From an uncultured Prevotellaceae bacterium (GTDB lineage Bacteria; Bacteroidota; Bacteroidia; Bacteroidales; Bacteroidaceae), in assembly GCA_947166655.1 (NCBI GenBank), contig CAMVFC010000001.1, positions 10,390 through 74,389 of the forward strand: 64,000 nucleotides of DNA, given 5' to 3'. This document shows positions 6,164 to 58,872 of the stretch, piece after piece. The notes beneath the pieces are model-generated. The model was not told the DNA's origin. It made no database searches and saw only the letters and a list, made by a program, of their open reading frames with translations. Within the stretch, counting starts at the first letter, position 1; each line of letters starts with the position of its first letter. The position numbers and the translations under genes were made by a program.

Positions 6164-8956
6164 ATGAAAAGATTTTTCATACTCCTTTTACTGTCACTTC
6201 CCTGCGTTGCGCTATGGGCTTCCAACATCCGGAAGTCCGTCAGTCAAGTCGCAGAAGGTGTAGATCTCACAGAGGATGTAGACTATCACATCACCTCTGC
6301 TACGCCATTTACGGATGAAGGCTTTGTCAACATTGTCAACACCGACCACGCCGTCATCATCTTTGACAACGTAAAGCCTTCGCTTGCGCTGAAACTTCTC
6401 AGCCATGTCTTCATCAACGGAGAGGCTGCCAAGAGCGAGTCGAACTGCCAGGTCAGACTTTATAACCGAGGTGCCATCCTCTATCCTTATGGAAGAGAGA
6501 GCACTTCCGAAAACGGTTTCCACCCACTCACGGTCTATGCCGAGCAGAACTGTACCGGTGAGTCCTACGAACGTTTTGCCCTGGAAAGCAGCGGCGGATA
6601 CATGAACACGCTGACAGCAGCCAAGCTGAACAACCGCATCCGCAGTTTCGTCCTCAAGCGCGGATACATGGTCACGTTCTCCCTTCGCGCCGAAGGCCGA
6701 GGCTATAGCCGCTGCTTCATCGCAGACAAGGAGGACCTTGTCATGAACACGCTGCCCTCCCTGATGGACAACCGCATCTCCTCTTACCGCATCTTCCGTT
6801 GGTACGACACCAGCAAGTCCGGACTCGCCAACAGCACCAACTACGAAGCCACACAGGCACTGAATGTCACCTCGTGCTACAGCTTCGGACTTGGAGAGAC
6901 ACGCCTTCCCGATGCCGAGTGCGTCCCGCATCACATCTATGAGGACTGGCCTTCCTCTTCTGCCTGCGGCGGCGTGAATTTCTCACCGCACATGAAGACC
7001 AACAACGAACCGGGCAACAGCGCCGATGACCATCCGCAGACCGTCGACCAGATCTTGGCGAACTGGGAGAACCTCATGCGAACGGGTATGCGTCTATGCT
7101 CACCGTCGTCTCACGACGGAAGCCTCAACCATCTTCGTGCATTCATGGATTCCATTGATGCCCGCGGATGGCGATGTGACATCATCGACCTCCACTGTTA
7201 TTGGGCCGAGGGCAGCTTCAGCACTTGGAGCTTCTATGACCAATGGGCCAACCGCTATGGACGCCCCATCTGGATTTCCGAATGGGTATGGGGCGCCTCC
7301 TGGAACAGCAACGGCGCTTTTGCCGGCAACGTGACCGAGGCACAGAACCGCGACGCCATCAAGCGCATCACTGAAAAGCTCAACGGATGGGACTGCATCG
7401 AACGTTACTACTACTGGAACAGCGAACGTGACCCGTCGCGCGTCTACAAGAACGGCAAGCTCACACCAGCGGGCGAGTACTATGCCTCCATGAACACCGG
7501 GCTCGGGTACTGCAACTACGGCAAATACATCCCGAAGACACCGCGCATGGTCTCGATCACAGACCTCGCTGTCACGTTCAATGCAAAGACGAACAAGGGC
7601 GAACTGACCTGGACCAACGCCAACGGCGACTTGACAGAAATGTCGGTCCTCCAGAAGAAGGTAAATAACGTCTGGACGGCACTCGTCACCATCCCCCAAA
7701 GCGACGAGAATACTCAGACCTACGCCATCGAGTTGGACGGTGCCGATGCCTTCGGCCTGCACGAATACCGCATCATGAACCTTGACGTCGACAACAAACG
7801 ACGCTACAGCAATATAGCCAGCGTATTCGTGGGCGGTGCCGAGGACCTGGGCGACATCATGGTGGGACGCATCGAAGTCACGAACAGCGACCTCTCCACC
7901 ATCTACTTCTCCAAGCAGGAAACAGCGCCGATGGTCTTCACCGGCATCCCGTCCAATGCGAACAACAGCAACGGATTAGTCAACCACCTCACGGCCATCA
8001 GTAAGGAAAGCTTCAAGTTCTTCTTCGACCCATGGACCGCCGGGACAGCCATGGAAATCACCAAGACAGAGTCCACCGACTTCATCTTGCTGCATCCTGG
8101 CAGAGGCACGTGGGGGACAATGCAATACGAGGCTGACACCTGTAAGTACGAGAATGCTTCGGGAGCTATCAGCAAGATGAGCCGCGGCGACACCATCGAG
8201 GTGACGTTCAAGGAGCCCTTCACGGAGATTCCCGTCGTACTCGTGCAGAACTTATACGCTGCGAGCAACAAGACGCCCACCTTCGCACGCGTCTTTGACG
8301 TGACCACAAAGGGCTTCAAGATGAGACTACTGAAACAAGAGGATGTCACCACTGCCATCGTGAACCAGTACTGCTTCTACCTCGCCGTCACGCCCGGAAC
8401 GGCATCCATCGGCGACACGGGCAAGCGTATCTCGGCAGGCATCGCAGACAACCCGACGGGCGGAGCAGGCACCATCCAGAACTACTTCCTTTCTCCAACA
8501 GGCGACACGCTTTATTTCGAGAATCCGTACATCATCGCAGGTGCTCAAACCCACTTCCTGGATGTGCCCAGCGTGATGCGTAAGGCATCCAATATCACCA
8601 AAAGCGAAACCGCCGAAGACGGGAAAACCCGTTTGCTGACCTATGGTATGCGCGTGAAGAGGCAAACGGATGCTACATCCACGATACCGACGGGCATGAA
8701 CACCGCCTCAAAGAGCGGCGATCTCATGGGATGGATTGTCATCGACAACGACCGCACGGGCAGCTCCATCAGCACGCCTGCCAGCAGCCACTCCAAGCTG
8801 TTCGTCGAGGTGCGTGGGCGACATATCTACCCCAGCGACCCCACTGCACGCATTTATACGGCAGCCGGCACGCGGGTACGTTCGGGACAGCAACTGCTTC
8901 CGGGCCTCTATATCGTCTCCAACAACCGCGAAAGCGTGAAGCTGATGTTACGCTAA
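6164..8956 (+). CDS. Large multidomain secreted glycosidase: clan GH-A 'glycosyl hydrolase catalytic core' (PF11790/GH128-like) with T9SS C-terminal sorting domain
   Basis: Signal peptide MKRFFILLLLSLPCVALWA. Candidate acid/base NNEP and nucleophile WISEW within MKTNNEPGNS...DLHCYWAEG...RPIWISEWVWG. C-terminal ...RIYTAAGTRVRSGQQLLPGLYIVSNNRESVKLMLR resembles a T9SS CTD. The N-terminal ~230 aa and the middle beta-rich regions are unassigned. Confidence 0.65.
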   Translation: MKRFFILLLLSLPCVALWASNIRKSVSQVAEGVDLTEDVDYHITSATPFTDEGFVNIVNTDHAVIIFDNVKPSLALKLLSHVFINGEAAKSESNCQVRLYNRGAILYPYGRESTSENGFHPLTVYAEQNCTGESYERFALESSGGYMNTLTAAKLNNRIRSFVLKRGYMVTFSLRAEGRGYSRCFIADKEDLVMNTLPSLMDNRISSYRIFRWYDTSKSGLANSTNYEATQALNVTSCYSFGLGETRLPDAECVPHHIYEDWPSSSACGGVNFSPHMKTNNEPGNSADDHPQTVDQILANWENLMRTGMRLCSPSSHDGSLNHLRAFMDSIDARGWRCDIIDLHCYWAEGSFSTWSFYDQWANRYGRPIWISEWVWGASWNSNGAFAGNVTEAQNRDAIKRITEKLNGWDCIERYYYWNSERDPSRVYKNGKLTPAGEYYASMNTGLGYCNYGKYIPKTPRMVSITDLAVTFNAKTNKGELTWTNANGDLTEMSVLQKKVNNVWTALVTIPQSDENTQTYAIELDGADAFGLHEYRIMNLDVDNKRRYSNIASVFVGGAEDLGDIMVGRIEVTNSDLSTIYFSKQETAPMVFTGIPSNANNSNGLVNHLTAISKESFKFFFDPWTAGTAMEITKTESTDFILLHPGRGTWGTMQYEADTCKYENASGAISKMSRGDTIEVTFKEPFTEIPVVLVQNLYAASNKTPTFARVFDVTTKGFKMRLLKQEDVTTAIVNQYCFYLAVTPGTASIGDTGKRISAGIADNPTGGAGTIQNYFLSPTGDTLYFENPYIIAGAQTHFLDVPSVMRKASNITKSETAEDGKTRLLTYGMRVKRQTDATSTIPTGMNTASKSGDLMGWIVIDNDRTGSSISTPASSHSKLFVEVRGRHIYPSDPTARIYTAAGTRVRSGQQLLPGLYIVSNNRESVKLMLR

Positions 8957-9010: not shown

Positions 9011-9123
9011 ATGAGGGGCCATCTGCCTGGTATCACCAGGGGGGAATGACCTCTGTGTTCAGCCGATATGCCACCCACCCTTTTAGCCTGCAGATGAAAG
9101 TGCAGAGAGTTCCTCCCGTTTTT

Positions 9124-9250
9124 CCAGTAACTTTTGATCAAAAGTGCCTTGAGTTTTGCCTTTTTTTCCTATAACTTTTCATCAAAAGTGCCTTGAGTTT
9201 CGACCCTTTTTCAAGTAACTTTTCGCCGAAAGTGCCTTGAGTTTTTTTCC
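9124..9250. repeat. Copy 1 of dispersed tandem-repeat element (three ~44-bp units)
   Basis: Units at 9124-9167, 9168-9211 and 9212-9250 each contain TAACTTTT-N6-AAAGTGCCTTGAGTTT. Unit 1 holds the perfect palindrome ACTTTTGATCAAAAGT (9130-9145). Confidence 0.85.
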
Positions 9251-9773
9251 TCCCCCTATTCGCCTTCAAATGACAGTGCTGAAAGAGGCCCCACCCTCCC
9301 CATCGGCAGCAGGGAAAATCACTAAGAGAAATCATCCTTCTCGCCGCTAAAACAACGACCCTACTCGGGTAAAAAAACATCCTGCGGGCCCGCCGGTTCT
9401 GGCATAGTTCTCTGTATATCACAGCAAATAAAGCCACCGTTCCGCCTATGGGTCAAACCGCCTGTCAACGCCTGTTCCCATGGCCATGAACAGATGGCAC
9501 TGGGCGGTGACAACCTGCCCGCTCTTTGAGGCGACACGAACGAATGTACGTTGCCGCGTGACAGCGGAGACACCGAAACTGACAAAGCCCTCTCCCAATC
9601 GGCCATTGAGCCTACATTTTCTCACGCCATGACCTCCTAAACAATAAGGCACGGACGCCCGACCACAGCTTGCCGTTTTTCTTAAGAAGAGGCAAGGCAA
9701 GAATATTTGTTAAATTTCCTTAACATCCACGATTTATATCGGCCTCCGCGCGCGTAGTAATGAAAAAAAGGCT

Positions 9774-9781
9774 TAATTTTG
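9774..9781 (+). promoter_or_regulatory. Candidate -7 promoter box TAATTTTG for the FAS1/SusC locus
   Basis: Matches TAnnTTTG, about 100 nt upstream of ATG 9882. Confidence 0.35.
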
Positions 9782-18457: not shown

Positions 18458-20668
18458 ATGAAACAACGTTCTATTTTCCAACATGTAAGTCAACTCCTCA
18501 TGGGGATATGCTGTATCTCCATGCTGATGGCCTGCACAGAGGAGATTGATACGTCCAACCGCTACACCTTCACCGAAGAGACGATTCTCAGCTATCTGGA
18601 GAAGCATGAGCAATACAGCGATTATGTGCAGCTTATCAAGCAAGTGCCCGTGAGTAGCGTGTCGGAATCTACCGTTGCACAGTTACTCTCAGCACGTGGC
18701 CATTTCACCTGTTTTGCCCCTACCAATGAGGCTATTCAGCTTTACTTGGACTCCCTACAGCGGAAAGGCATCTTAACGGAAGCCTCCTGGGAAGCTTTGC
18801 AGGCGTCGGAGAGCCTTGACTCGATCAGCAAGGTCATCGTCTACAACAGCATCATCGACGGTGGCGACATTCAGTACTATGAGACCTCCGACTTCCCTAA
18901 AAAGGATAATGACGAGTTCCCCATTTCCAACATGAACGATCGCAAGCTGAGCATCATTCGCGGAAAAGTGAACACCGACAGCATCTATATCAATGGTGAA
19001 GTGCCCGTTTCCCTGAGTAATCGCGACATCGAAGCTATCAACGGCCGTATTCACGAAGTATCTCTGGTCATTGCTCCGAGCAATGATACCATGCGTGATA
19101 TCCTTCTGTTATGGTCCGAGGACAAGAATTCCGGCTACATGGTCATGGCCAAATTGATCCTCGCTTGCGGATTAAGTGATACACTGAGTGCCGTACGCGA
19201 CGAGGTCTATGAGGTGATGTATCAGAAGGGACAGATTCCAGACCTCCCGAAGCATAACACCTTCGGGCAAGTGGGCAGTGCTCCTTCACACCGCAAATAT
19301 GGCTTCACGATCTTCGCTGAACCCGATGCTCTGTGGGAGCGCACGCTCCAAAAGCCAGCAGAACAGATTACTGTGCAAGACGTCAAAGAGTTTCTCCTGA
19401 ATCAAGAAGCACTCAACGAGAATGGAATGACAACCGACGACAACTTTATGGACGAGAACAACATCCTCAATCTGTTCGTCACATATCATATCCTGCCTGA
19501 GCGAATCAGCCGAGACAAGTTGGTTGTGCACTACAATGAGAAGGGATACAACTACCAGACTTCGCAGAACTACACCATTGCCATCTCCGATTTTTATACG
19601 ACGATGGGCAAGCCCCGCCTGCTCAAAGTTTACGAAAGCAAGGAGAGCAACGGCATCTACCTCAACCGCTTCCCCATTCTGAGGAACGGACGAGGTGAGT
19701 ACTCACCTGAGAATCTGGACGTGAACGACTACCACGAAAGCGGTAAGTTCAAGAAGCTCTATGCAGAAGGCACCTATCTGAGAGAAGACGAGAACGAAGG
19801 CATACTTGTTCAGAACCCGACCGAGGTCGGCACCAGCACGGTAAACGCCCTCAATGGTCTGGTCTACCCCATCGAGAAGATCTTGGGCTGCACAGAGAAC
19901 GTTCGTCGCCAGATGCAGAGACAACGCATCCGTATCGACGCATCATCGATGTTCCCCGAGTTCATGAACAACGACCTGCGCGGCATTAAGCAGTTCTTTA
20001 CAGAAGGAGCTACCAACTGCCGCGGCTTCTCCACGGCCTATCAGTATCTGGCAGACGTGGAAATCAAGGAAGGTACCGAGTTCTATTACCTGCCCGGCCT
20101 CAACTGCGGTTGGTGTAACCTCGAAGCTGATGAGTTCAATGTCATTGGCCGATACGAGTTTACAATGAAGCTACCTCCCGTACCTTGCGAGGGGACCTAC
20201 GAGTTGCGCTTCGGCGTGGCTACGGGAACATCCCACCGTGGTATGTGCCAAGTCTATTGGGGTACAGACAAGAACAATTTGCCCGCACGCGGTATTCCTA
20301 TGGACCTTCGCGTCGGCGGAAGGTATCGTCGTCTGATTGGCGAGACCCAGACCTCCACCGTCGGTTGGGAAGAGGACAATGACGATCCCGAGCATAACGA
20401 CGAAATCGACAAGAAGATGCGTAACAACGGATTCATGAAAGCTCCAGAGGCCTGGACAGCTGTCCTTGGCTCCAGCACCACGGTCCGCACGTATGAATAT
20501 GTCACCCGTCGTATTCTTGTCAGGGAGCACATGGTACCCAACACGAATTACTACATCAAGTTCAAGTCCGTTCTTGACGACGAGAAAAAAGAATTCTTCA
20601 TGGACTATATCGAATACTGCGCCAAGGAAGTTTATGACAACCCCGAAGAAGGCGAAGATATCTGGTAA
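18458..20668 (+). CDS. FAS1 (fasciclin) domain lipoprotein with uncharacterised C-terminal domain (paralog A)
   Basis: Lipobox LMAC followed by TEEID. FAS1 H1 motif HFTCFAPTNEAIQLY and H2 motif AINGRIHEVSLVIAPS. The C-terminal ~400 aa are unassigned. Confidence 0.75.
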   Translation: MKQRSIFQHVSQLLMGICCISMLMACTEEIDTSNRYTFTEETILSYLEKHEQYSDYVQLIKQVPVSSVSESTVAQLLSARGHFTCFAPTNEAIQLYLDSLQRKGILTEASWEALQASESLDSISKVIVYNSIIDGGDIQYYETSDFPKKDNDEFPISNMNDRKLSIIRGKVNTDSIYINGEVPVSLSNRDIEAINGRIHEVSLVIAPSNDTMRDILLLWSEDKNSGYMVMAKLILACGLSDTLSAVRDEVYEVMYQKGQIPDLPKHNTFGQVGSAPSHRKYGFTIFAEPDALWERTLQKPAEQITVQDVKEFLLNQEALNENGMTTDDNFMDENNILNLFVTYHILPERISRDKLVVHYNEKGYNYQTSQNYTIAISDFYTTMGKPRLLKVYESKESNGIYLNRFPILRNGRGEYSPENLDVNDYHESGKFKKLYAEGTYLREDENEGILVQNPTEVGTSTVNALNGLVYPIEKILGCTENVRRQMQRQRIRIDASSMFPEFMNNDLRGIKQFFTEGATNCRGFSTAYQYLADVEIKEGTEFYYLPGLNCGWCNLEADEFNVIGRYEFTMKLPPVPCEGTYELRFGVATGTSHRGMCQVYWGTDKNNLPARGIPMDLRVGGRYRRLIGETQTSTVGWEEDNDDPEHNDEIDKKMRNNGFMKAPEAWTAVLGSSTTVRTYEYVTRRILVREHMVPNTNYYIKFKSVLDDEKKEFFMDYIEYCAKEVYDNPEEGEDIW

Positions 20669-20695
20669 GCCCAACTACAAAAACAATATCAACAA

Positions 20696-22915
20696 ATGAA
20701 GAACATCAAACGATATTATTCCATGCTGGCAGGCCTCTTAGCCCTTGTCATGGCCAGCGTGAACACAGGATGCACCGAGGACATTGATACAAGCAATCGG
20801 TACACCTTCACCGAGTATACCGTGCTCAGCTATCTTGAAGAGCATCCTGAATACTCAGAATACGTAGAATTGCTGAAGCAAGTCAAGATCAGCGATGTCA
20901 AAATCGGCACGCTCGAGAGTTCTACCGTAGCCCAGCTTCTGTCTGCCCGCGGCAACTTCACCTGCTTTGCACCCACCAACGATGCCATTCAGCTTTATCT
21001 GGACACGCTCCAGCGTAAGGGCATCATTACCGAGGCCTCCTGGGAGGGCCTGCAGGCATCTGAGAGCCTTGACTCCATCCGCAAGGTCATCGTTTACAAC
21101 AGTATCATCGACGGCGGCGACGTCACATTCTATGAAACGTCGACCTTCCCGAAGAGCGGTAACGAGTTCCACATTGCGAATCTCAACGATCGCAAGCTCA
21201 GTGTCATCCGCGGTACTGTTAACTCTGACAGCATCTACATTAACGGCGAATATCCTATCAGTCTGCAGAACCGTGATATCGAGGCCATCAACGGCCGCAT
21301 TCACGAGATGGCACAAGTCATTGCGCCGAGTAACGACACCATGGCCGACATTTTCCGGAAATGGATTCAGGAGAACGAAGGCCACTATCGCGTGATGGCT
21401 AAGCTCATCCTTGCCTGCGGTCTGGGAGACACGCTCAGCAAGGTCCGCGATGAAAATTGGGAGACCTACTGGCTCACGAAGAGTCCCAACATCGGCGACT
21501 TCGATAAAAACAACCCCCAGTCGGGTATTCCTCCCGAGCACCGCAAGTATGGCTTTACCATCTTTGCCGAGACCGATGAGACATGGGAATCTCTTCTGCC
21601 TGGTAAGACTGTTGAAAGCATTACTGTTGAAGACGTCAAGAACTATCTTGTTGAGCATAACGCCTACGAGGGTGCTTCCACAGACGAGAACTACAAGGAT
21701 CCCAACAACATCGTTAATCAGTTTGTTACCTACCACATCCTGCCCATGCGCATCAGCCGCGACAAGCTGGTGGTTCACTACAATGAGAAAGGCTACAACT
21801 ATGCCTCTTCCAGGAACTATACCATCGCCACTGCCGAATATTACACCACCATGGGTAAGCCTCGTCTTTTGAAAGTCTATGAGAGCTTTGAGAGTCAAGG
21901 CATCTACCTCAACCGCTTCCCCATACTCCGTAACGGACGCGGCCGTTTCTCTCCGGAAGAGGAAAACATCAACGACTACCGTGAGAGCGGCGACTTCTGT
22001 GAAATCAGAGGCACATACATGAGAGAGGATGAGAACGAGGGTGTCAAAGTTGAGAACAGCACTGAAGCCAATCTCACGACAGAGTCTACCCTCAACGGTA
22101 TCATTTACCCCATTCAGAAGGTGTTGGTCTACACCGACAACGTTCAGACTCAGCTGCAGCGTCAGCGCATCCGCTTCGACCTGGCTTCCATCCTTCCTGA
22201 GATGATGAGCAACGACATCCGTCGCCCGCTCGAGGCCTACCCCACCCTGCACGCCAGCTATCGCGGATTCCCCACCGATTACCAGTATTTCGACAACATC
22301 GAGATCAAGGAAGGTTCCCGCTTCTATTACCTCAATGGTCTGGGCAAGAACTGGTACAACTGGCAAGGTGATGAGTTTAATATCATCGGTCGCTACGAGT
22401 TTATCATCAAGCTGCCTCCCGTGCCCAAGGAGGGAAACTATGAACTGCGTCTGGCAGTACAGAGCAACTCCAACCTGCGCGGCATGTGTCAGGTTTACTG
22501 GGGTCCCGACAAGCAAAACCTTCCCGCCATCGGTATTCCTCTTGACATGCGTATGGGCGGACAATATCGTCGTCTGACCAACACTACGCAGCCCTCTATC
22601 GTAGGCTGGGTGGCCGACTCACAGTTGGATGGCCAGGAAGCCATCGACGAGGTCGACAAGATGATGCGTAACAACGGCTTCATGAAGGGTCCGGAGCACT
22701 TCAGCCCCACCCCCGGAAGTTCCACCACGGCACGCCAGCTGGCCGACCATACACGTCGTATCATGGTGAGTGCCCACATGGATCCCGACAAGACCTACTA
22801 CCTGAAGTTCAAATCGGTGCTGGATGACGAACTGAAGCAGTTCTTCATCGACTACATCGAGTACTGCGCCAAGGAAGTCTATGACAATCCTGTAGAAAGC
22901 GAAGATATCTGGTAA
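20696..22915 (+). CDS. FAS1 (fasciclin) domain lipoprotein (paralog B, tandem duplicate of 18458-20668)
   Basis: Lipobox NTGC followed by TEDID. Motifs NFTCFAPTNDAIQLY and AINGRIHEMAQVIAPS. Collinear with paralog A along the full length, including the tail FFIDYIEYCAKEVYDNPVESEDIW. Confidence 0.75.
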   Translation: MKNIKRYYSMLAGLLALVMASVNTGCTEDIDTSNRYTFTEYTVLSYLEEHPEYSEYVELLKQVKISDVKIGTLESSTVAQLLSARGNFTCFAPTNDAIQLYLDTLQRKGIITEASWEGLQASESLDSIRKVIVYNSIIDGGDVTFYETSTFPKSGNEFHIANLNDRKLSVIRGTVNSDSIYINGEYPISLQNRDIEAINGRIHEMAQVIAPSNDTMADIFRKWIQENEGHYRVMAKLILACGLGDTLSKVRDENWETYWLTKSPNIGDFDKNNPQSGIPPEHRKYGFTIFAETDETWESLLPGKTVESITVEDVKNYLVEHNAYEGASTDENYKDPNNIVNQFVTYHILPMRISRDKLVVHYNEKGYNYASSRNYTIATAEYYTTMGKPRLLKVYESFESQGIYLNRFPILRNGRGRFSPEEENINDYRESGDFCEIRGTYMREDENEGVKVENSTEANLTTESTLNGIIYPIQKVLVYTDNVQTQLQRQRIRFDLASILPEMMSNDIRRPLEAYPTLHASYRGFPTDYQYFDNIEIKEGSRFYYLNGLGKNWYNWQGDEFNIIGRYEFIIKLPPVPKEGNYELRLAVQSNSNLRGMCQVYWGPDKQNLPAIGIPLDMRMGGQYRRLTNTTQPSIVGWVADSQLDGQEAIDEVDKMMRNNGFMKGPEHFSPTPGSSTTARQLADHTRRIMVSAHMDPDKTYYLKFKSVLDDELKQFFIDYIEYCAKEVYDNPVESEDIW

Positions 22916-28282: not shown

Positions 28283-30691
28283 ATGAAAAAGAATCTCATT
28301 AAATCTCTTTTCCTGGCCTTGGCGTTGAGTGTCGGTTTCTCCTCTTGCGAGGATATGCTCACGCCCGATATGGATCGTCACAACGAGGTTGACGAATTGG
28401 CCACCGATACGCTCTATTCCTACTGGGGCATCCTGCGCAGCCTGCAGGGCATCGCCGAGCGCTATGTCATCCTCGGCGAATGCCGCGGCGATCTGGTCAG
28501 CGGCACCGAATACGTCAGCGATTCCATCCACTCCATCCTCGAGTTCGGCCGCGAGGGCGATGCCAGCGACGGCGCCTGCCGCTACCTGCAGGCCAGCGAC
28601 TTCTACCAGGTCATCAATTCCTGCAACGCCTACATCGCCCACTGCGACACCCTGAAGGTCACCGGCACCAACCGCAGCGTCATGCTGAAGGAGTATGCAC
28701 AGGTGGTCAGCATCCGTGCGTGGGTCTACATGCAGCTCGTGCTCACCTATGGCCGCGTGCCCTATTTCACCGAGCCCATGCTCTCCACGGCCGAGATTGA
28801 CAACTTCTGGAGTGCTCCCGAATACGTCAGCAACGAAGACCTGAGCGACAAGAGCGTCGTCACCGAACTCGAGAAGGTGCGCAACGTAGACACCCCGGAC
28901 TACGGCAACTATGGCCGCAACCCCGTCATCGCTGCCGCCACCCAGTGCCTGTTCCCGCAGAACCTCGTGCTCGGCGACATCTATCTGCTGAAAGCCAAGA
29001 AGGGCGACGTGGCCACCTATGCCAAGGCCGCGCAGTACTACTACGACTTCCTCAACACCAAGATGGGCGGCTGCATCAGTCCCAGCACCTACTACAACCT
29101 GCTGAACCGCGATCAGATCTCCGACCAGCTGTTCAACGCCCTCGATGCATGGTCGCAGATGTTCACCTCCAAGGTGAGCGTCTCCAGCAACAGCGAGGTC
29201 ATCACCGTCATCCCGAGTTCGCAGAACAAGCTCTGGGGCACGGTCAACCGCGGCATAGGACAGCTCTTCGGCTACAGCTCAGAGATCTCCGTACGCACTG
29301 AGGCCAGCGACACCACGACCTCGGCCAGCATCTCCCTGGACTACAACTTTCAGCATGAGCTCGATGCCTCACGCGCCTACATCAACCTGAACCACGCACA
29401 GACCTACGAGACCTACATCAACGACATCACCCGCTGCACGCCCATCGAAGGAGGCTTCGATGCCCGTCTGGGTGCGGCCACCATCGATGTGCAGAACCGC
29501 GAGGGCGACGGCACTCAGGTCAGATTCGTACAGAAACAGAACCCTCGCTTGATTTTCTCCACCACCTACCCCATCATCTACCGCAAGGGTAATGTCTGGC
29601 TCCGCTTTGCCGAGGCGCTGAACGGTGCTGGCTTCCCGGGCTATGCCTTCGCCATCCTCAAGAGCGGCCTCTGCGGTAACAGCAACTGGCTGCCCACGAG
29701 CGAGACGCAGTATCAGCCTAAGACGTCTAAAGCCTACGATGCATCAGAGATTAAGGTCGATATAGAAGGACAAAAGGACACGGTGTTCTATGAGAACAAG
29801 AAAGACTGGTATTATCACCTCTACCAGCGGGCTTATACCGAGCAGGCAGAGGTCCTGAATGATACCATCCTCACCAACCATGGATGGAGCTTTGGCACAG
29901 ACAGCCTCAGTGCCGAGGATTTCAGCACCATCTTCAACAACATGAAAGCGCAGCAAGATGACGCTGGTGAGTGGAAAGTTAATTATGAATATTACTTCAT
30001 TTATATCCTGTTAGATAATTGGGCCTATAACACCCATTCAGCCGATCTGAAATTTGTTCCCACCAGCTACTATCCCTGGCCCGATCCGGGTCTGACGAAC
30101 CTCGTATGCAACCACATTCCCCTGCAGGAGATGCAAGCTGCCCGTTCGGCAGGCTTCCTGAACTTCACTACGCTCTACCTGCGTGGCATAAACAATTCGC
30201 AGAGCATCGCCGTCGCTCCCAGTCAGTACGGCATGGGAACAAGCTCAGCACTGGACCTCTACACACGCAACCAGGATCCTGTTACGATGGGCATCCATGC
30301 CCGCGGCTGCGGCCTCATCCGCTACGACGAGCGAAACACCACGTTCAACTACACCACTCAGGTGAACAAGATGCTGGGCAAATATGAGAACAATCTGCTG
30401 CCCACAGATACGGCAGGCCAGACGAGGACGCTCACCCGCGAAGAGATCTACGCTCCCGAGAACAAGGAGAAAGTGCAGATCGCCATTGCCGACCTCATCC
30501 TCGACGAGATGGCGCTGGAGACCAGCTTCGAGGGCAACCGCTTCTTCGACCTGGTGCGCTATGCCCGCTTCCGCGGCGACAACGACCAGCTGGCCAAGCG
30601 CGTTGCCGCACGCAGCGGCAGCGAGGATGCCGGACTGCGCAGCTATCTGCAGAGCACGGACAACTGGTTCTTCAAGATTCCCACCCGTTAA
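28283..30691 (+). CDS. SusD/RagB-family lipoprotein (pair 2), unusually long (802 aa)
   Basis: Lipobox GFSSC followed by EDM. C-terminal SusD hallmark ETSFEGNRFFDLVRYARF. Contains an AT-richer internal segment at about 29740-30065. Confidence 0.85.
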   Translation: MKKNLIKSLFLALALSVGFSSCEDMLTPDMDRHNEVDELATDTLYSYWGILRSLQGIAERYVILGECRGDLVSGTEYVSDSIHSILEFGREGDASDGACRYLQASDFYQVINSCNAYIAHCDTLKVTGTNRSVMLKEYAQVVSIRAWVYMQLVLTYGRVPYFTEPMLSTAEIDNFWSAPEYVSNEDLSDKSVVTELEKVRNVDTPDYGNYGRNPVIAAATQCLFPQNLVLGDIYLLKAKKGDVATYAKAAQYYYDFLNTKMGGCISPSTYYNLLNRDQISDQLFNALDAWSQMFTSKVSVSSNSEVITVIPSSQNKLWGTVNRGIGQLFGYSSEISVRTEASDTTTSASISLDYNFQHELDASRAYINLNHAQTYETYINDITRCTPIEGGFDARLGAATIDVQNREGDGTQVRFVQKQNPRLIFSTTYPIIYRKGNVWLRFAEALNGAGFPGYAFAILKSGLCGNSNWLPTSETQYQPKTSKAYDASEIKVDIEGQKDTVFYENKKDWYYHLYQRAYTEQAEVLNDTILTNHGWSFGTDSLSAEDFSTIFNNMKAQQDDAGEWKVNYEYYFIYILLDNWAYNTHSADLKFVPTSYYPWPDPGLTNLVCNHIPLQEMQAARSAGFLNFTTLYLRGINNSQSIAVAPSQYGMGTSSALDLYTRNQDPVTMGIHARGCGLIRYDERNTTFNYTTQVNKMLGKYENNLLPTDTAGQTRTLTREEIYAPENKEKVQIAIADLILDEMALETSFEGNRFFDLVRYARFRGDNDQLAKRVAARSGSEDAGLRSYLQSTDNWFFKIPTR

Positions 30692-30715: not shown

Positions 30716-30758
30716 AGCAGCTACGCCCGTTCCCTTCGGACGTAGCTGCTTTCGTTTT
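30716..30758 (+). terminator. Rho-independent terminator after SusD pair 2
   Basis: AGCAGCTACG (30716-30725) pairs with CGTAGCTGCT (30741-30750) and is followed by TTCGTTTTT. Confidence 0.75.
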
Positions 30759-30850
30759 TCCGACCCGCACGCCCCTGCACTGCCCCACCACGCCCGTGCC
30801 CCCATCCCTCAGCAGCCAACCAGGCCGCCTGCCACCGTCCGCAGTTCAGA

Positions 30851-31021
30851 CAGGGACTGCCGAGGGTCTGCGGTAAAAGTGTCTTGAGATTTGCAAAAAA
30901 CTCAAGGCAGATTTGTCCAAAACTCAAGGCAGATTTGTCCAAAACTCAAGGAAGATTTGCGCAAAAGTCAAGGCAGATTTGCGCAAAAGTCTTAAGAAAA
31001 AAAGCGGTGACACTTTCAGAC
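30851..31021. repeat. Copy 2 of dispersed tandem-repeat element (inverted relative to copy 4)
   Basis: Head CAGGGACTGCCGAGGGTCTGCGG, then 21-24-bp units (AAAACTCAAGGCAGATTTGTCC x2, AAAACTCAAGGAAGATTTGCGC, AAAAGTCAAGGCAGATTTGCGC), and tail GCGGTGACACTTTCAGAC. Confidence 0.9.
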
Positions 31022-31041
31022 TGCCCGACACACCCTGCCGT

Positions 31042-31120
31042 GAGGGGTTGTTCCATCACGATGGAACGATGGTTCCATCACCATGGAACGATGGTTCCAT
31101 CACGATGGAACAAACCCCTC
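31042..31120. promoter_or_regulatory. Array of three 18-bp palindromes (GTTCCATC-N2-GATGGAAC type) at 22-bp spacing, closed by GAGGGGTT/AACCCCTC
   Basis: GTTCCATCACGATGGAAC, GTTCCATCACCATGGAAC and GTTCCATCACGATGGAAC, each separated by GATG. Located about 100 nt upstream of the lacZ -7 box. Function is inferred only. Confidence 0.5.
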
Positions 31121-31220
31121 TTGCTGCAGTATCCTCTCTCACCGCCTGCGGAGCAGAGCCGCACTGCGGGCTGTGCTGCGCATTTTCCTTAGAAAAATTT
31201 GGTCTGAATGGCAATAATGA

Positions 31221-34463
<3,243 letters not shown>

Positions 34464-38387: not shown

Positions 38388-40898
38388 TTGTGCCCCAACA
38401 TGGCAAAACCTTACGACCCATCTTCAAGAGCACACCTTCTCCCCCTTGAACAAGGGCGGAGGACAGATGTTCTCCTTCCTCTTCTCCTCTTCTCGTCCTT
38501 TCTCTGTCCCCTGTTGCTCCGTGCCCAAGGCACACTTGCCGACTACCAGCATGCCTATGCCGTGCAGAAGGAGTATTCATGGGCCAAAGTCAAGAACCAT
38601 GTCGACGATGCACGTTGGCTGCCCGACGGTCGCTTCCAGTATCACCTCACCGACGGTCAGGGCGGTGGCCTCTGGCACTTCGGACAAATAAACACCACCT
38701 CCGCCACTTCCCCCGACGGCACTGCGACAGCCAGCACAAGCCCCTTCCCTGCCGAAGTCATTACTCTCGCCGACAGCACCTCAGCCCATCCCGTCGAGAC
38801 GCAGCACGCCGCAGGTGCGCGACGCTTCTCCCGCCGCGACAATCGCGTCCGCTTCATCGCCAACCCCACCAAGCGCCGCCACGAACGTCACTGGATGGAA
38901 ACCGACGACGAGCGCAGTGCCGACCCAGTTCTGTCGCCCGACTCCTCCCTTGTTGCTTTCATCCGCAACGACAATGTATGGGTGGCCCGGCCAGACGGAT
39001 CGGAAGCACGTGCCCTCTCCGTGGAAGGCACACTCAGCCATTACTTCAGCAGCTACATCCAGTGGAGCCCCGATGGCCGCTATGTCGCCACCTGCCGTAT
39101 CCGTCCCGTCGATAAGCGCTACGTCTACTATGTAGAGTCGTCGCCCGCTGACCAGCTACAGCCAGTCCTCCATAAGCAGGAATATGCAAAGCCCGGTGAC
39201 GAGCTGGCACAGAAGACACCCTACATCTTCGAGGTCGCTACAGGCAAGTCTGTACACCCCGAAGCCCATCTCATCGCCCATCAGTACGACCTCTCACGGC
39301 TGCAATGGCGCAACGACAACCGCGGCATACGCTTCGACTACAACCAACGAGGCCATAAGCTCTATCGCATCTACGAGATGGATGCTCCCGCATCAGCCCA
39401 GGCATCAAAAAACCGCGCCCAAGCATCAAAAGAGAACACATCGAAGGCCCAAGCATCAAAAAGCCCCGCCCAAGCATCAAAAGGTTCCGCCCAAGCATCA
39501 AAAAGCCCCGCAGCCTTTTCCTCCGGTCCAAGCGCCGTGGTGCCTTCGCCGTCCGGCGAAGTCCCCCTCCGCACCCTTATCGAGGAGCGCGCCGACACCT
39601 ATGTACGCTACTCCACCTACATCCGCCAAGACCTTCACGGCGACAGCCTCATCCTCTGGCTCAGTGAGCGCGACGGCTTCCCCCACCTCTATCTCTTCGA
39701 CACCGCCAAGGGCAAGATGCGCCAGCTCACTCGTGGCAGTTGGTGCGTCCGTCGCCTTATCCATATAGACGAGGAGCGAGACATCATTTATTTCACCGCC
39801 AATGGTCGCAACGCTGGCGAGGACCCCTACCATATCCACTACTACCGAGTCAGCCTCGACGGCAGCAGCCTTCAGGACCTCACCCCCGAGCCCGGCAACC
39901 ACTACGCCCGCTTCAACGCCGATTACTCCGCCCTCATCGACACTTATTCAACCCAGGACACCCCTCCCACCACTAAGGTGAGAGCGCTCGGCGATTTCGT
40001 CGCCGAGAAAAAACGCCCTGCCAAGAAGGCCCTCTTCGCGGAGAAAACCCACCTTGCCGAGAAGACCCTCGCCACCGCCGACATCACTGCCCTGCAAGCC
40101 ACCGGCTGGACAGCACCCGAAATCTTTGTGGCCCCAGGTCGCGACGGGAAGACACCCATGTGGGGCATCATTCAGCGACCCTCGCATTTCGACCCCTCAA
40201 AGAAATATCCTGTCATTGAATATATCTATGCCGGCCCGGGCGACAGCTACACGCCCAAGTCCTTCCAACCCTACAATTATTATACCTCTTCCTTGGCCGA
40301 GCTTGGTTTCATCGTCGTGCAACTTGACGCCATGGGCACCAGCAACCGCGGCAAGGCCTTCGAAGAAATATGCTACAAGAACCTCAAGGACGCCGGTTTC
40401 CCCGACCGCATCGCATGGATAAAAGCCGCAGCCGAGAAATATCCCTACATGGACATTAACCGAGTAGGCATCTACGGCTGCTCGGCCGGCGGACAGGAAA
40501 GCACGGCTGCTGTCCTCTTCCACGGCGACTTCTACAAGGCAGCCTACAGCGCCTGCGGCTGCCACGATAACCGCATGGACAAAATCTGGTGGAACGAGCA
40601 GTGGATGGGCTATCCCGTGGACTCCTCCTACGTTGAATGTTCCAATGTCGAGAACGCCCATCGTCTGGAACGACCCCTCATGCTCGTCGTGGGAGAATTA
40701 GACGACAACGTCGACCCCGCCAGCACCATGCAGGTGGCTGATGCACTCATCCGTGCCAACAAGCCCTTCGAGCTCGTCGTCATCCCCGGCGCTCATCACA
40801 CCGTCGGCGAGAGCTACGGCGAACACAAGCGCTTCGATTTCTTTGTCAAGCACCTCCTCGGCGTAGAGCCACCAGCATGGAACAGCCTCAATCCCTAA
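38388..40898 (+). CDS. S9-family serine peptidase (DPP IV-type beta-propeller + alpha/beta-hydrolase) with low-complexity insertions
   Basis: Propeller repeats (LSPDSSLVAFIRNDNVWV, WSPDGRYVATC). Catalytic elbow GIYGCSAGG, Asp context GELDDNVD and His context PGAHHTV. Signal-like LLPLLLFSSFLCPLLLRAQG. The exact start is uncertain (38388 or 38400). Confidence 0.85.
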   Translation: MCPNMAKPYDPSSRAHLLPLEQGRRTDVLLPLLLFSSFLCPLLLRAQGTLADYQHAYAVQKEYSWAKVKNHVDDARWLPDGRFQYHLTDGQGGGLWHFGQINTTSATSPDGTATASTSPFPAEVITLADSTSAHPVETQHAAGARRFSRRDNRVRFIANPTKRRHERHWMETDDERSADPVLSPDSSLVAFIRNDNVWVARPDGSEARALSVEGTLSHYFSSYIQWSPDGRYVATCRIRPVDKRYVYYVESSPADQLQPVLHKQEYAKPGDELAQKTPYIFEVATGKSVHPEAHLIAHQYDLSRLQWRNDNRGIRFDYNQRGHKLYRIYEMDAPASAQASKNRAQASKENTSKAQASKSPAQASKGSAQASKSPAAFSSGPSAVVPSPSGEVPLRTLIEERADTYVRYSTYIRQDLHGDSLILWLSERDGFPHLYLFDTAKGKMRQLTRGSWCVRRLIHIDEERDIIYFTANGRNAGEDPYHIHYYRVSLDGSSLQDLTPEPGNHYARFNADYSALIDTYSTQDTPPTTKVRALGDFVAEKKRPAKKALFAEKTHLAEKTLATADITALQATGWTAPEIFVAPGRDGKTPMWGIIQRPSHFDPSKKYPVIEYIYAGPGDSYTPKSFQPYNYYTSSLAELGFIVVQLDAMGTSNRGKAFEEICYKNLKDAGFPDRIAWIKAAAEKYPYMDINRVGIYGCSAGGQESTAAVLFHGDFYKAAYSACGCHDNRMDKIWWNEQWMGYPVDSSYVECSNVENAHRLERPLMLVVGELDDNVDPASTMQVADALIRANKPFELVVIPGAHHTVGESYGEHKRFDFFVKHLLGVEPPAWNSLNP
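39391..39512 (+). repeat. In-frame tandem repeat GCCCA(A/G)GCATCAAAA... encoding (A)QASK units inside the S9 peptidase gene
   Basis: Five copies of the core, giving ASAQASKNRAQASKENTSKAQASKSPAQASKGSAQASKSPA. Confidence 0.85.
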
Positions 40899-44654: not shown

Positions 44655-45917
44655 ATGAAACAAACGATCCTCACCCTTTTGCTGTCAGCCTGCTGCCTCA
44701 CCCTTTCCGCAGCGTCTGACACCCTCCTGCCTGCATGGTTCGGCCAGGAAGATGCCTCCACACGCATCGGCATCGCGCCGCCTGCGACCGACGAAGCTCA
44801 AGCCCGCTCCATCGCTCTCATCAATGCCACCTTGAGCTATCTGCGCACACAGCAGGAGGGCAAGATGGCAGGCCACACCAGTTACAAACTTTCTACGGAA
44901 GGGGAAGGCGCCGACGACTACGACTCCTACCTACAGATCACCAGCAAGAGCGCTGTCCGCTACAGCGATTTCGACTGCAAGATTCTCGATGAATACCGCA
45001 ACAGCCGCGGAGAGTACTTCGTCCGCTGCCGCTTCAGCAAGAACGCCTCTGCGCACAGCCACTTATCCATCGAGCAGGAGATGCGAAGTACAGGCTACGG
45101 CGAACATTCCGACCAGCTTCTTACGGCAAAGATAGAGCTGACGCTGAAAGACCATCGTTTCCAGAGTCTGTTCAGATGTGACGTGAAAGATGGCCAAGAC
45201 GCCGCCGTGACCATTGCTACGAAAGAAGGCGAAGTGGCGCTTCCACAAGGCCTGTCTTACGGACGATGGACAGCCAGCAAGACCTCGGGCTACAGCTCTC
45301 TGCCTTTTGCCCCCGCAGAAATGGGCCTGTCATTAGGAGCCCTTCAGCTGTCGACCTACTGCATGCTGCCTTTCATCCCCAAGCGCATGGCGGCTTCCGG
45401 GCAAATCATGTCCCAGTCCACCAATGAAGAAAACGGCGGCGACAAGGGCTTCTCTTACCGCTCCATTTTCAGCGCCCTCTCAGACTCCGTCTGCACGCCC
45501 TATGACATCCGCTTCGGTTCCCTGTCCAAGAAGGGCCTCCAACTGCAAATCCAGCACGCTAACTTTAATGATACCGAGAGCAGCTACGAGACACCCGGGA
45601 CGGTGCAAGCAGGAGCGTTCGCCGACAACGACCGAAGCACGGGCATTCAGCGACTGATGCAGGCACAGACCTTGTACATCTCCGGCCTCTTCGAAGCGTG
45701 GACTTACAAGAGCCGTGAGCAGCAGTCTGAGGGCACCTTCAGCAGCGAGCAGAGCACTTTACGGACCACTGTAAGCAGAAACTCTGCCACCAACATTGGC
45801 GTTCGCTGGGATTTCAGCAATGTTCCCTCCGAGAAAGCCTTGCGCGCCGAGGTAAAGAAAGCGGTGAAGAACGGACAAGCCTTCCCCCGCCACGGCTTCT
45901 GGGTTTCCATCCGATAA
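44655..45917 (+). CDS. Exported protein of unknown function (420 aa)
   Basis: Signal peptide MKQTILTLLLSACCLTLSAAS. Starts 6 nt after the upstream stop and is followed by a strong terminator. No motif recognised. Confidence 0.6.
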   Translation: MKQTILTLLLSACCLTLSAASDTLLPAWFGQEDASTRIGIAPPATDEAQARSIALINATLSYLRTQQEGKMAGHTSYKLSTEGEGADDYDSYLQITSKSAVRYSDFDCKILDEYRNSRGEYFVRCRFSKNASAHSHLSIEQEMRSTGYGEHSDQLLTAKIELTLKDHRFQSLFRCDVKDGQDAAVTIATKEGEVALPQGLSYGRWTASKTSGYSSLPFAPAEMGLSLGALQLSTYCMLPFIPKRMAASGQIMSQSTNEENGGDKGFSYRSIFSALSDSVCTPYDIRFGSLSKKGLQLQIQHANFNDTESSYETPGTVQAGAFADNDRSTGIQRLMQAQTLYISGLFEAWTYKSREQQSEGTFSSEQSTLRTTVSRNSATNIGVRWDFSNVPSEKALRAEVKKAVKNGQAFPRHGFWVSIR

Positions 45918-45978: not shown

Positions 45979-46027
45979 GTGGCCGGAGTTTCAACCCCTT
46001 CTGTTGAAACTCCGGCCACTCTTTTCT
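45979..46027 (+). terminator. Rho-independent terminator
   Basis: Perfect 17-bp stem: GTGGCCGGAGTTTCAAC (45979-45995) pairs with GTTGAAACTCCGGCCAC (46003-46019), followed by TCTTTTCT. Confidence 0.9.
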
Positions 46028-46156
46028 GAAACCCTTGGGACTTTTGCAAAAAACTCTTGGCATTTTTGCCCAAAACTCTTAAGGGTTTTTGCCAAAACTC
46101 TTGACACTTTTTGCGAAAACCTTTAAGACTTTCAGCCGAGGCCCTCAAGAGTCTGG
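46024..46156. repeat. Copy 3 of dispersed tandem-repeat element
   Basis: Five units of 21-23 bp at 46028-46137 (for example AAAAACTCTTGGCATTTTTGCCC, AAAACTCTTAAGGGTTTTTGCC, AAAACTCTTGACACTTTTTGCG). Tail is CCGAGGCCCTC. Confidence 0.88.
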
Positions 46157-46230
46157 CGCAGAAGCCCTGTCGCTGTTCGCCAGGAACGGACGGCGATGGG
46201 CGGTAAGTCACTGCAAACCACGCCTATAGC

Positions 46231-47203: not shown

Positions 47204-47211
47204 CAAAAGTA
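47204..47211 (-). promoter_or_regulatory. Candidate -7 box TACTTTTG (minus strand) for the DUF4886 gene
   Basis: The plus strand reads CAAAAGTA, about 30 nt upstream of the start. Confidence 0.4.
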
Positions 47212-47244: not shown

Positions 47245-47410
47245 AAAAAAAGAACGAGGAATGACGAATGATGAATGACGAATGACGAATGACGAATAAG
47301 TTTTTCTAATGGCTTTTGACACACTTACTGCCATCAAAAGTAATCCTTATTCGTCATTTGTCATTCGTCATTCGTCATTCATCACTCTTCATTCTTCACT
47401 CTTCATTAAG
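47245..47410 (-). terminator. Giant hairpin built of heptad tandem repeats (GAATGAC)n / (GTCATTC)n followed (minus strand) by a T7 tract; probable terminator of the pyrophosphatase gene
   Basis: Left arm 47256-47300 is GAG GAATGAC GAATGAT GAATGAC GAATGAC GAATGAC GAATAAG. Right arm from 47347 is CTTATTC GTCATTT GTCATTC GTCATTC GTCATTC ATCACTC.... The plus-strand run AAAAAAA at 47245-47251 becomes the T-run after the stem on the minus strand. Confidence 0.6.
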
Positions 47411-58617: not shown

Positions 58618-58658
58618 GAGCGGTGACACTTCGTCTGAAAGTGTCACCGCTCATTTTC
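58618..58658 (+). terminator. Rho-independent terminator after TonB-dependent receptor
   Basis: GAGCGGTGACACTT (58618-58631) pairs with AAGTGTCACCGCTC (58639-58652) and is followed by ATTTTCC. Confidence 0.85.
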
Positions 58659-58804
58659 CTAAAGACTTTTGCCGAAGTTTGCCTTGACTTTTGTGAATTT
58701 CTGCCTTGATTTTTGTGCAAAACTCAAGGCACTTTTACCAAAAACTCTTGGCAGTTTTTCGCAAAACTCAAGACACTTTTTCCGGAGGCCCTCGGCAGTC
58801 CCTG
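58653..58804. repeat. Copy 4 of dispersed tandem-repeat element
   Basis: Units in both orientations: TGCCTTGACTTTTGTGAATTTC and TGCCTTGATTTTTGTGC, then AAAACTCAAGGCACTTTTACC, AAAAACTCTTGGCAGTTTTTCGC and AAAACTCAAGACACTTTTTCC. Tail is GGAGGCCCTCGGCAGTCCCTG. Confidence 0.9.
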
Positions 58805-58872
58805 CCCAAACGGCTGCCAGTGGCGGCCAAAGCCCTGAGGAGTGGCAGCTGAAGCCTGAGCCGTCCGACCCT

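Follow-up and report, generated by a model that had tools for sequence, protein, structure and literature searches.

A 22-bp minisatellite element beside terminators in an uncultured Prevotella-like Bacteroidales: a candidate lineage-specific interspersed repeat

Four arrays inside a bounded element

The DNA analysed here is a single 64-kb stretch (the window; 57% G+C) from an uncultured Prevotella-like Bacteroidales, for which the best match to gdh is 98% identical and the named matches are 'Bacteroidaceae bacterium' metagenome-assembled genomes (MAGs). At four places in the window, here called sites 1 to 4, a tandem array of contiguous 22-bp units lies within a short intergenic element (Table 1). 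All four copies stand at gene 3' ends, two of them between convergent and two between tandem genes, with none in a divergent pair, and the element is present at two of the three convergent gene junctions of the window. The original prediction placed the arrays outside any credible coding sequence, and this holds for every copy; the open reading frames (ORFs) that cross the element, such as 30884-31192, are spurious.

Table 1. Copies of the element in the 64-kb window, with their arrays, adjoining genes and terminators (L, left flank; R, right flank; TRF, Tandem Repeats Finder).
Feature	Position	Strand or orientation	Description	Basis
Element copy 1	~9092-9290	(-), R->L on + strand	six units, 44-bp period, subtype as L107	profile, TRF, segmentation
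Element copy 2	30831-31021	(+), L->R	L flank 30831-30874, six units, R flank 31004-31021	alignment, nhmmer E=3.8e-51
Element copy 3	~46020-46158	(-), R->L on + strand	five units; between convergent genes	profile, independent assemblies
Element copy 4	58633-58824	(-), R->L on + strand	six units (58647-58781)	alignment, profile, segmentation
Aligned block, sites 2 and 4	30831-31021; 58824-58633	(+); (-)	191 bp, opposite orientation	local alignment
Array, site 1	9112-9248		6 contiguous units	segmentation
Array, site 2	30875-31007		6 contiguous units	segmentation
Array, site 3	46026-46132		5 contiguous units	segmentation
Array, site 4	58647-58781		6 contiguous units	segmentation
Genes at site 1	6164-8956; 9882	(+); (+)	upstream glycoside hydrolase; downstream first polysaccharide utilisation locus gene; tandem	
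Genes at site 2	28283-30691 (upstream gene)	(+); (+)	upstream last SusD-like gene of polysaccharide utilisation locus; downstream GH2 beta-galactosidase; tandem	
Genes at site 3	44655-45917 (upstream gene)	(+); (-)	upstream gene; downstream DUF4886 gene; convergent	
Genes at site 4	56487-58586 (upstream gene)	(+); (-)	upstream TonB-dependent receptor; downstream gdh; convergent	
Terminator of SusD-like gene	30718-30752	(+)	hairpin and T-run, separate from element, ~75 bp before copy 2	by eye, alignments
Terminator of gene 44655-45917	45979-46019	(+)	perfect 17-bp stem, abuts copy 3 directly	terminator scan
Terminator of TonB-dependent receptor gene	58618-58652	(+)	14-bp stem	terminator scan

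That dispersed arrays of 22-bp units occur at four intergenic tracts is confirmed. TRF reports period-22 arrays at 30887-30988 (4.6 copies, 90% matches), 46029-46132 and 58664-58782, and a period of 44 at site 1 (9119-9245). The array limits in Table 1 come from a manual segmentation in which each concatenation of units was checked against the sequence. A junction motif, TTTTGNNNAAAANTC, allowing up to one mismatch, is found 19 times against an expectation of 0.59 (none of 100 shuffles reaches 19), and all 19 matches are confined to the four tracts. A looser, generic definition of an array found none in approximately 936 kb of unrelated loci and recovered only sites 2 and 4 in the window. Two of the sites are reproduced in independent assemblies, site 3 being identical in L122 and three single-nucleotide polymorphisms (SNPs) away in L149, another strain, and site 2 being reproduced in L118. 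The arrays are therefore not an artefact of assembly. The units quoted in the original prediction are indeed present in the sequence, and its four tracts stand, with five or six units in each by segmentation, but the element that contains them is larger than the tracts as first delimited.

Each unit has the form A4-CTC(AA/TT)GGCA-N2-T3-5-N3-4, with the sequence AAAACTCAAGGCAGATTTGTCC (22 nt), and successive cores lie 22 bp apart, or 44 bp at site 1. Nested in every unit is a quasi-palindrome, CAAAACT-CAAGGC-AGNTTTG, whose A/T-tract arms keep a fixed register, and the core between the arms is CTCAAGGCAG, CTCTTGGCAG or the reverse complement of either one. Core flips distinguish the aligned units of sites 2 and 4, and three of the six units in copy 4 have the core inverted relative to copy 2. 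The earlier description of the unit as quasi-palindromic, with units of opposite orientation able to pair, is borne out by the segmentation and by the predicted folds. At site 1 and in the metagenome copy L107, an internal-type unit alternates with a terminal-type unit, AAAAGTTACTGGAAAAA, and it is because of this alternation that the period of site 1 is 44 bp.

Homology between copies continues beyond the arrays. Sites 2 and 4 align over the whole of the 191-bp block at approximately 80% identity, with non-repeat flanks included. The layout of the element is a short GC-rich L flank, a minisatellite of five or six units, a terminal unit (AAAAGT..RG-A5-7) and an R flank that either forms or adjoins a hairpin and T-run; the whole measures approximately 140-200 bp, of which each flank takes up approximately 15-45 nt. 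Sites 2 and 4 have in common both the L flank (CAGGGACTGCCGAGGGYCT; ...CAGGGACTGCCGAGGGYCTSCGG), which in copy 2 contains CAGGGACTGCCGAGGGTCT, and the R flank (GCGGTGACACTTTCAGAC), which follows a terminal unit, AAAAGTCTTAAGAAAAAAAG. Both flank motifs are unique to these two sites within the window, and the R flank is partly shared with site 1 and L107. An nhmmer profile, made from the four window copies and one metagenome copy, finds exactly four copies in the 64 kb and none elsewhere in it, a number whose scope is the window rather than the whole genome. Judged by the flanks, site 2 is oriented opposite to sites 1, 3 and 4.

The original prediction also had every copy just 3' of a plus-strand gene and its hairpin terminator. 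This is clear at sites 2, 3 and 4 (Table 1), but at site 1 inspection by eye reveals no more than a weak 5-bp hairpin, which the terminator scan did not flag. At sites 3 and 4 the array begins at the T-run of the long perfect hairpin of the upstream gene. At site 4 the loop and 3' arm of that terminator are supplied by the R flank of the element, which is homologous to the R flank of copy 2. Copies 1 and 2 are inverted relative to each other, with their L ends inward, and bracket a 21-kb polysaccharide utilisation locus (9882-30691), an arrangement that resembles a composite one, though possibly by coincidence.

Strain variation, distribution and the favoured reading

The comparison of strains and sister species centres on site 2. 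In L118, which belongs to the same species, the SusD-like gene is 98-100% identical to that of the window apart from one mosaic segment. The site 2 array of L118 has one 22-bp unit fewer, and its SNPs are denser than in the coding flanks. As an indel of 22 bp is not a multiple of three, it argues against coding, and a coding potential of the array was ruled out on this difference between conspecific strains.

The sister species L119, L120 and L121, with a SusD-like protein 80-84% identical, lack the site 2 element in alignment, and the nhmmer profile gave no match over any of the three. The upstream terminator hairpin is kept in all three. The TTCCATCA..GGAAC palindromes upstream of GH2 are likewise retained in L119 and L121; L120 ends before this region. 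Between the kept signals lies unrelated sequence without units. At site 2 the window and L118 thus have the filled state and L119, L120 and L121 the empty one, with flanks too diverged between the two to place exact junctions.

Elsewhere the element is rare. The profile found no copy in approximately 60 kb from relatives with a 96% identical gdh; synteny downstream of gdh differs in these relatives, and site 4 is therefore without an orthologous comparison. Look-ups for the exact gdh and TonB-dependent receptor proteins returned no record. A pattern scan of JGI metagenomes gave ten matches, one of them true, namely L107, a copy of the site 1 type that lies downstream of a ferredoxin-like gene and its terminator. 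IMG/VR gave no match in one scan and coding-repeat noise only in another, and blastn against plasmid and phage collections gave none. The degenerate pattern AAAASTCWWGRCANNTTTNNNNAAAA, run over reference-genome contigs, returned at least 102 single chance matches in unrelated phyla. Searches of the literature for Prevotella repeat elements and for papers citing BrickBuilt yielded no description of the element; BrickBuilt is a repeat of Porphyromonas gingivalis to which we return below.

Several short-read metagenome contigs of this species end near repeats. L148 stops 51 bp past gene 44655-45917, L122 opens with the site 3 hairpin, and L118 ends in the GH2-upstream repeats just past the element. 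This suggests that the element, the adjoining hairpin and neighbouring repeats fragment metagenome assemblies.

The shared flanks, the occurrence in both orientations, the polymorphism in unit number, the absence from sister species and the narrow distribution fit an interspersed repeat. On balance, we therefore regard it as probable that all four tracts represent a single mosaic repeat, non-coding and interspersed, that is specific to this lineage, has a minisatellite inside it and is tolerated next to terminators. Such an element is most likely selfish or neutral, like BrickBuilt or the BOX elements, rather than a new regulatory system. It would have dispersed within the lineage after the split from the sister species L119-L121, possibly by mobilisation in trans or by recombination, and its copies would persist where they do least harm, just beyond terminators. 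Sites 3 and 4 hint that insertion may take place in the T-run of a terminator already present. Array length may shift by replication slippage, and template switching inside the nested quasi-palindrome could flip the core from CTCAAGGCAG to CTGCCAAGAG. Effects on the cell would be a by-product, arising from long hairpins in read-through RNA, from moderately curved DNA or from a donated terminator arm, and occasional co-option is conceivable, with the terminator arm at site 4 as a possible example.

A number of observations weigh against this interpretation. Neither terminal inverted repeats nor target-site duplications were found at the homology boundaries, by alignment or by eye. The 191-bp block has GCCACCGTCC... 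at one end and ...CACTTTCAGAC at the other, and neither is an inverted repeat of its counterpart; GCAAAAGTCTT, close to the R end, is similar to the 3' repeat of BrickBuilt but is the start of a unit; and TTCAGAC, present at both ends of site 2, is missing at the left end of site 4 and altered in L118. No transposase, integrase, rep or par gene or domain occurs among the ORFs of the window. Because no terminal repeats, duplications or transposase are visible, mobility is inferred from presence and absence only. Polarity relative to the upstream gene is the same at four of five loci (sites 1, 3 and 4 and L107), and identity among copies is only approximately 65-80%, below that of typical recent bursts of MITEs (transposable elements of the miniature inverted-repeat type). 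At site 3, conservation between strains is about equal in the array and in the DNA on either side. The near-uniform array size (five or six units) and the strict 22-bp register would also suit a selected function at the DNA level, as would the predicted curvature considered below.

BrickBuilt is the closest published analogue. It is a minisatellite-containing MITE built of a leader, a 23-nt minisatellite (unit consensus AGACCATAGTATCCTCTCATATG) and a tail, with IS5-like terminal inverted repeats, GAGACCTTTGCA / TGCAAAGGTCTC, flanks of up to approximately 300 nt and arrays of 1-23 units; its copies fall between genes and are limited to one species, 10 of 19 cases being close to a terminator, and the number of units changes from strain to strain (Klein et al. 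2015, Mob DNA 6:18, PMC4596501). The two elements are alike in having a host of the order Bacteroidales, a strictly intergenic position, a non-repeat leader followed by contiguous spacerless units (23 and 22 nt) and a different non-repeat tail. Both are restricted to a species or its close relatives and often lie beside Rho-independent terminators, and both have predicted long stem-loops, no Rfam match and unit numbers that differ between strains. However, the units AGACCATAGTATCCTCTCATATG and AAAACTCAAGGCAGATTTGTCC are unrelated, no terminal inverted repeats are evident here, and in place of long flanks and widely varying arrays the window element has flanks of approximately 15-45 nt and uniformly five or six units. 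Quasi-palindromic A/T-tract units with the core in either orientation further set the window element apart. Membership of BrickBuilt was rejected on the unit sequence and the IS5-like terminal repeats, although the flanks, the intergenic placement and the variation in unit number match.

A classical MITE was likewise rejected on the lack of terminal inverted repeats and target-site duplications, although the filled and empty sites among relatives do match one. The original prediction had set aside a MITE-like kind. This stands as far as the terminal repeats and duplications of a classical MITE are concerned, none of which was found, but the closest analogue is itself a minisatellite-bearing MITE. 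A second element of P. gingivalis, PgRS/MITE464, has 41-nt internal tandem repeats, repetitive flanks and IS5-like terminal inverted repeats (PMC4596501). It is comparable as a MITE-like Bacteroidales element with an internal tandem repeat, but differs in its 41-nt period, its repetitive flanks and its terminal inverted repeats. A CRISPR array was rejected since the units are contiguous head to tail, with no unique spacers between repeats.

Resemblances to repeats of other phyla lie in layout and position. BOX elements of Streptococcus pneumoniae reportedly have the structure boxA-(boxB)n-boxC; the boxB unit is 45 nt long, the ends resemble inverted repeats and a genome holds more than 100 copies. 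By layout alone the window element is similar, with a tandem, variable middle module between two different end modules, and both are intergenic, dispersed, hairpin-forming and lineage-specific, but the phylum, the 45-nt boxB and the inverted-repeat-like ends of BOX all differ, and a relation in sequence is not expected. REP/BIME units of Enterobacteria and Pseudomonas are GC-rich imperfect palindromes of 20-40 nt, separated by linkers and moved by RAYT transposases; some of the elements bind nucleoid proteins or gyrase, and some stabilise upstream mRNA. They too are extragenic and species-specific, found at gene 3' ends and between convergent pairs as short units in both orientations. In contrast, the units here are contiguous, with A/T-tract arms and marginal hairpin stability. 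Membership of REP/BIME was rejected on the unit arms (CAAAACT / AGNTTTG) and on stable pairing that occurs only between different units; no RAYT gene was found in the window.

Alternative readings at the DNA and RNA level

The original prediction read the 22-bp period as that of a phased protein-binding array. In its fuller form, this would make each array a set of six binding sites on one helical face, or a curved segment, read by a nucleoid-associated or dimeric protein, with the unit as a pair of inverted half-sites (CAAAACT-N6-AGNTTTG) and the array as an insulator, roadblock or topological element between transcription units. The spacing of cores remains strictly 22 bp despite 20-35% divergence, the A/T-tract half-sites stay put even where the core has flipped, and array length is similar in every copy, all of which speaks for such a site, as do the presence at two of the three convergent junctions and the conservation across species of a neighbouring, operator-like 22-bp palindromic array (31050-31111). 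Curvature was predicted with a wedge model that uses Bolshoy parameters and reproduces the contrast between A4T4 and T4A4. Sites 1, 3 and 4 rank within the highest 1% of the window, and site 2 is at the 97th percentile.

The predicted curvature is nevertheless only moderate, at 27-47 degrees against 63-72 for ideal A4T4 / A6N4 controls, and is not above that of ordinary promoter regions. The comparative evidence points elsewhere as well: unit number varies between conspecific strains, orientation is not fixed, the distribution is extremely narrow, and the element is missing in the sister species, all of which retain the terminator and two of which retain the operator-like signals as well. The homology also takes in non-repeat flanks, for which a binding array would have no use, and we know of no candidate protein. 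What speaks for the earlier proposal is chiefly the strict register and the rank of sites 1, 3 and 4 in predicted curvature; as an explanation of the arrays, we consider a phased binding site unlikely.

A broader version of this idea, which we judge distinctly unlikely, is that the arrays belong to a wider, undescribed group that stands beside terminators in Prevotella-like Bacteroidales and has in common a 21-22-bp period and, flanked by A- and T-tracts, a TCAAG/CTTGA core. The strict two-turn register would be maintained through binding of a DNA-binding or nucleoid protein specific to the lineage, or through curved DNA acting as an insulator between convergent transcription units. Possible further members, of weak resemblance, are intergenic 21-22-bp arrays that lie between convergent genes in relatives, at L103 7032-7150 (also L105 2040-2158) and L117 4580-4660. 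One of these is TAGGCCATCAAGGGCAAGACAC x5.4 and the other an A/T-tract array, AAAAAAGCTCTTGATCTTTTT x3. Both share the TCAAG/CTTGA core (7-9 nt) with the window units; the nhmmer profile did not detect the L103 and L117 arrays, and the resemblance is confined to this 7-9-nt core.

A role in RNA was put forward as the main alternative in the original prediction. The array would then be a structured 3' untranslated region reached by read-through, or an independent small RNA (sRNA), with hairpins that stabilise or regulate flanking mRNAs in the manner of REP and BOX. Each of the eight strand-specific folds exceeds shuffled sequences in stability (z -1.9 to -5.0; the most stable is the minus strand of site 4, at -51.2 kcal/mol), the source being units of opposite orientation that pair with one another. 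BrickBuilt regions are known to be transcribed, and a reported sRNA overlaps one of them (PMC4596501). However, the folds have no architecture in common across the sites, and stability is about the same on the two strands. A long-stem terminator hairpin and T-run precede the array at sites 2, 3 and 4, and little read-through is therefore expected. Orientation relative to the upstream gene is not fixed, and no canonical -7 box lies in or adjoins the arrays. The Rfam scan found nothing at gathering thresholds and, at E<=5, only sub-threshold microRNA-hairpin matches at site 3, in keeping with the original prediction, which did not recognise the element as an Rfam family. An RNA-level function thus makes a weak alternative, and we hold it to be quite improbable.

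The genome to which the window belongs uses the Bacteroidetes -7 box, and this bears on whether the arrays could be weak, possibly bidirectional promoters (nAnnTTTG on both strands) that drive downstream or antisense transcription. AnnTTTG is present in most units (cAgaTTTG, gActTTTG), the reverse complements carry gAgtTTTG, and sites 1 and 2 lie upstream of plus-strand genes. The full TAnnTTTG box, on the other hand, has eight intergenic matches, all eight of them just upstream of gene starts and none in an array, where the units carry nAnnTTTG only. The genes downstream of sites 1 and 2 have separate boxes of their own, at 9774 and 31222. The 22-bp spacing from TTTG to TTTG is approximately 4-5 bp short of the -33/-7 geometry reportedly described for Bacteroides promoters, and two of the sites lie between convergent genes. 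BrickBuilt segments are active in E. coli reporters (PMC4596501), which would favour promoter activity by analogy. With TAnnTTTG missing from every array, promoters were set aside as the main explanation, and we rate them as very improbable. A sigma-54 reading (TGGCA..TTGC) was rejected by eye, the offset from GG to GC being 9 nt and not 12.

Since classical iterons and transposase end-sites consist of contiguous direct repeats approximately 22 bp long, the units could be replicon iterons or the end-binding sites of a large integrated element of the Tn7 or Mu type. The likeness to plasmid iterons, such as the 22-bp repeats of R6K, extends to the length of two helical turns, and the 21-kb polysaccharide utilisation locus lies between sites 1 and 2, which are inverted relative to each other. 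Plasmid iterons, though, mark a single origin beside a rep gene, whereas here four separate arrays lie at intergenic sites among 64 kb of ordinary chromosomal genes, with no rep, par, transposase or integrase gene in the window and no match in the plasmid and phage collections. Moreover, the SusD-like gene, its terminator and the first part of the downstream region are present in the sister species, where the site 2 array is missing. We give this explanation next to no credence.

Neighbouring sequences and significance

Just beyond copy 2, at 31044-31117, there is a second and unrelated 22-bp tandem array, GTTCCATCACGATGGAACGATG x2.8, whose unit is a palindrome with 8-bp arms. It lies approximately 110-170 bp upstream of the GH2 -7 box (31222) and, unlike the A/T-tract element, is conserved in the sister species L119 and L121 (ATTATTCCATCATGA..GATGGAAC). 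The GTTCCATCACGATGGAACGATG array could be the operator of a regulator that controls GH2 or the polysaccharide utilisation locus. The mechanical start of the GH2 ORF, a TTG at 31227, falls inside the TATCTTTG -7 box at 31222 (31222-31229), and the true start codon is probably further downstream.

Upstream of site 2, the mosaic segment of the SusD-like gene (29716-30147, approximately 430 bp) is only 50-72% identical to L118, with indels, against 98-100% for the rest, which points to a recombined or diversifying surface-exposed segment. The polysaccharide utilisation locus itself, with two SusC/SusD-like pairs, contains two adjacent fasciclin-domain genes (18458-22915; 736 and 739 aa) that form a tandem duplication, with approximately 71-78% DNA identity at a spacing of approximately 2247 bp.

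Other short repeats occur in the window. Between the 3' end of an H+-pyrophosphatase gene and the start of the DUF4886 gene, inverted heptamer arrays (47250-47407; GAATGAC x5.6 and ATTCGTC x8.4) form the arms of a hairpin, approximately 58 nt each and 84% complementary, and minus-strand TAnnTTTG boxes lie in or beside it at 47204 and 47335. Periods of 21-22 bp recur at 58819-58860, beside the L flank of site 4 (AGTGGCAGCCAAAGCCCTGAGG x2), and at 39396-39511, inside an S9 peptidase ORF (GCCCAAGCATCAAAAAGCCCC x3-5). Minisatellites of approximately 22 bp seem to be unusually common in this lineage.

The element has practical consequences for work on this lineage. It may contribute to breaks in metagenome assemblies (L148, L122, L118), the length differences that it introduces between strains could make it useful as a strain marker, and masking or annotating it would keep spurious ORFs from gene calls. 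Were the DNA-binding reading true, it would imply an unknown factor that organises gene ends in abundant gut bacteria, although no finding here requires it. As an interspersed repeat, which we favour, it would be the second in the Bacteroidales with an internal minisatellite of approximately 22 bp, after BrickBuilt, and a new family within a type of bacterial intergenic repeat that is already known, in an uncultured lineage of gut or rumen type where at one site it gives an arm to a gene's terminator hairpin.

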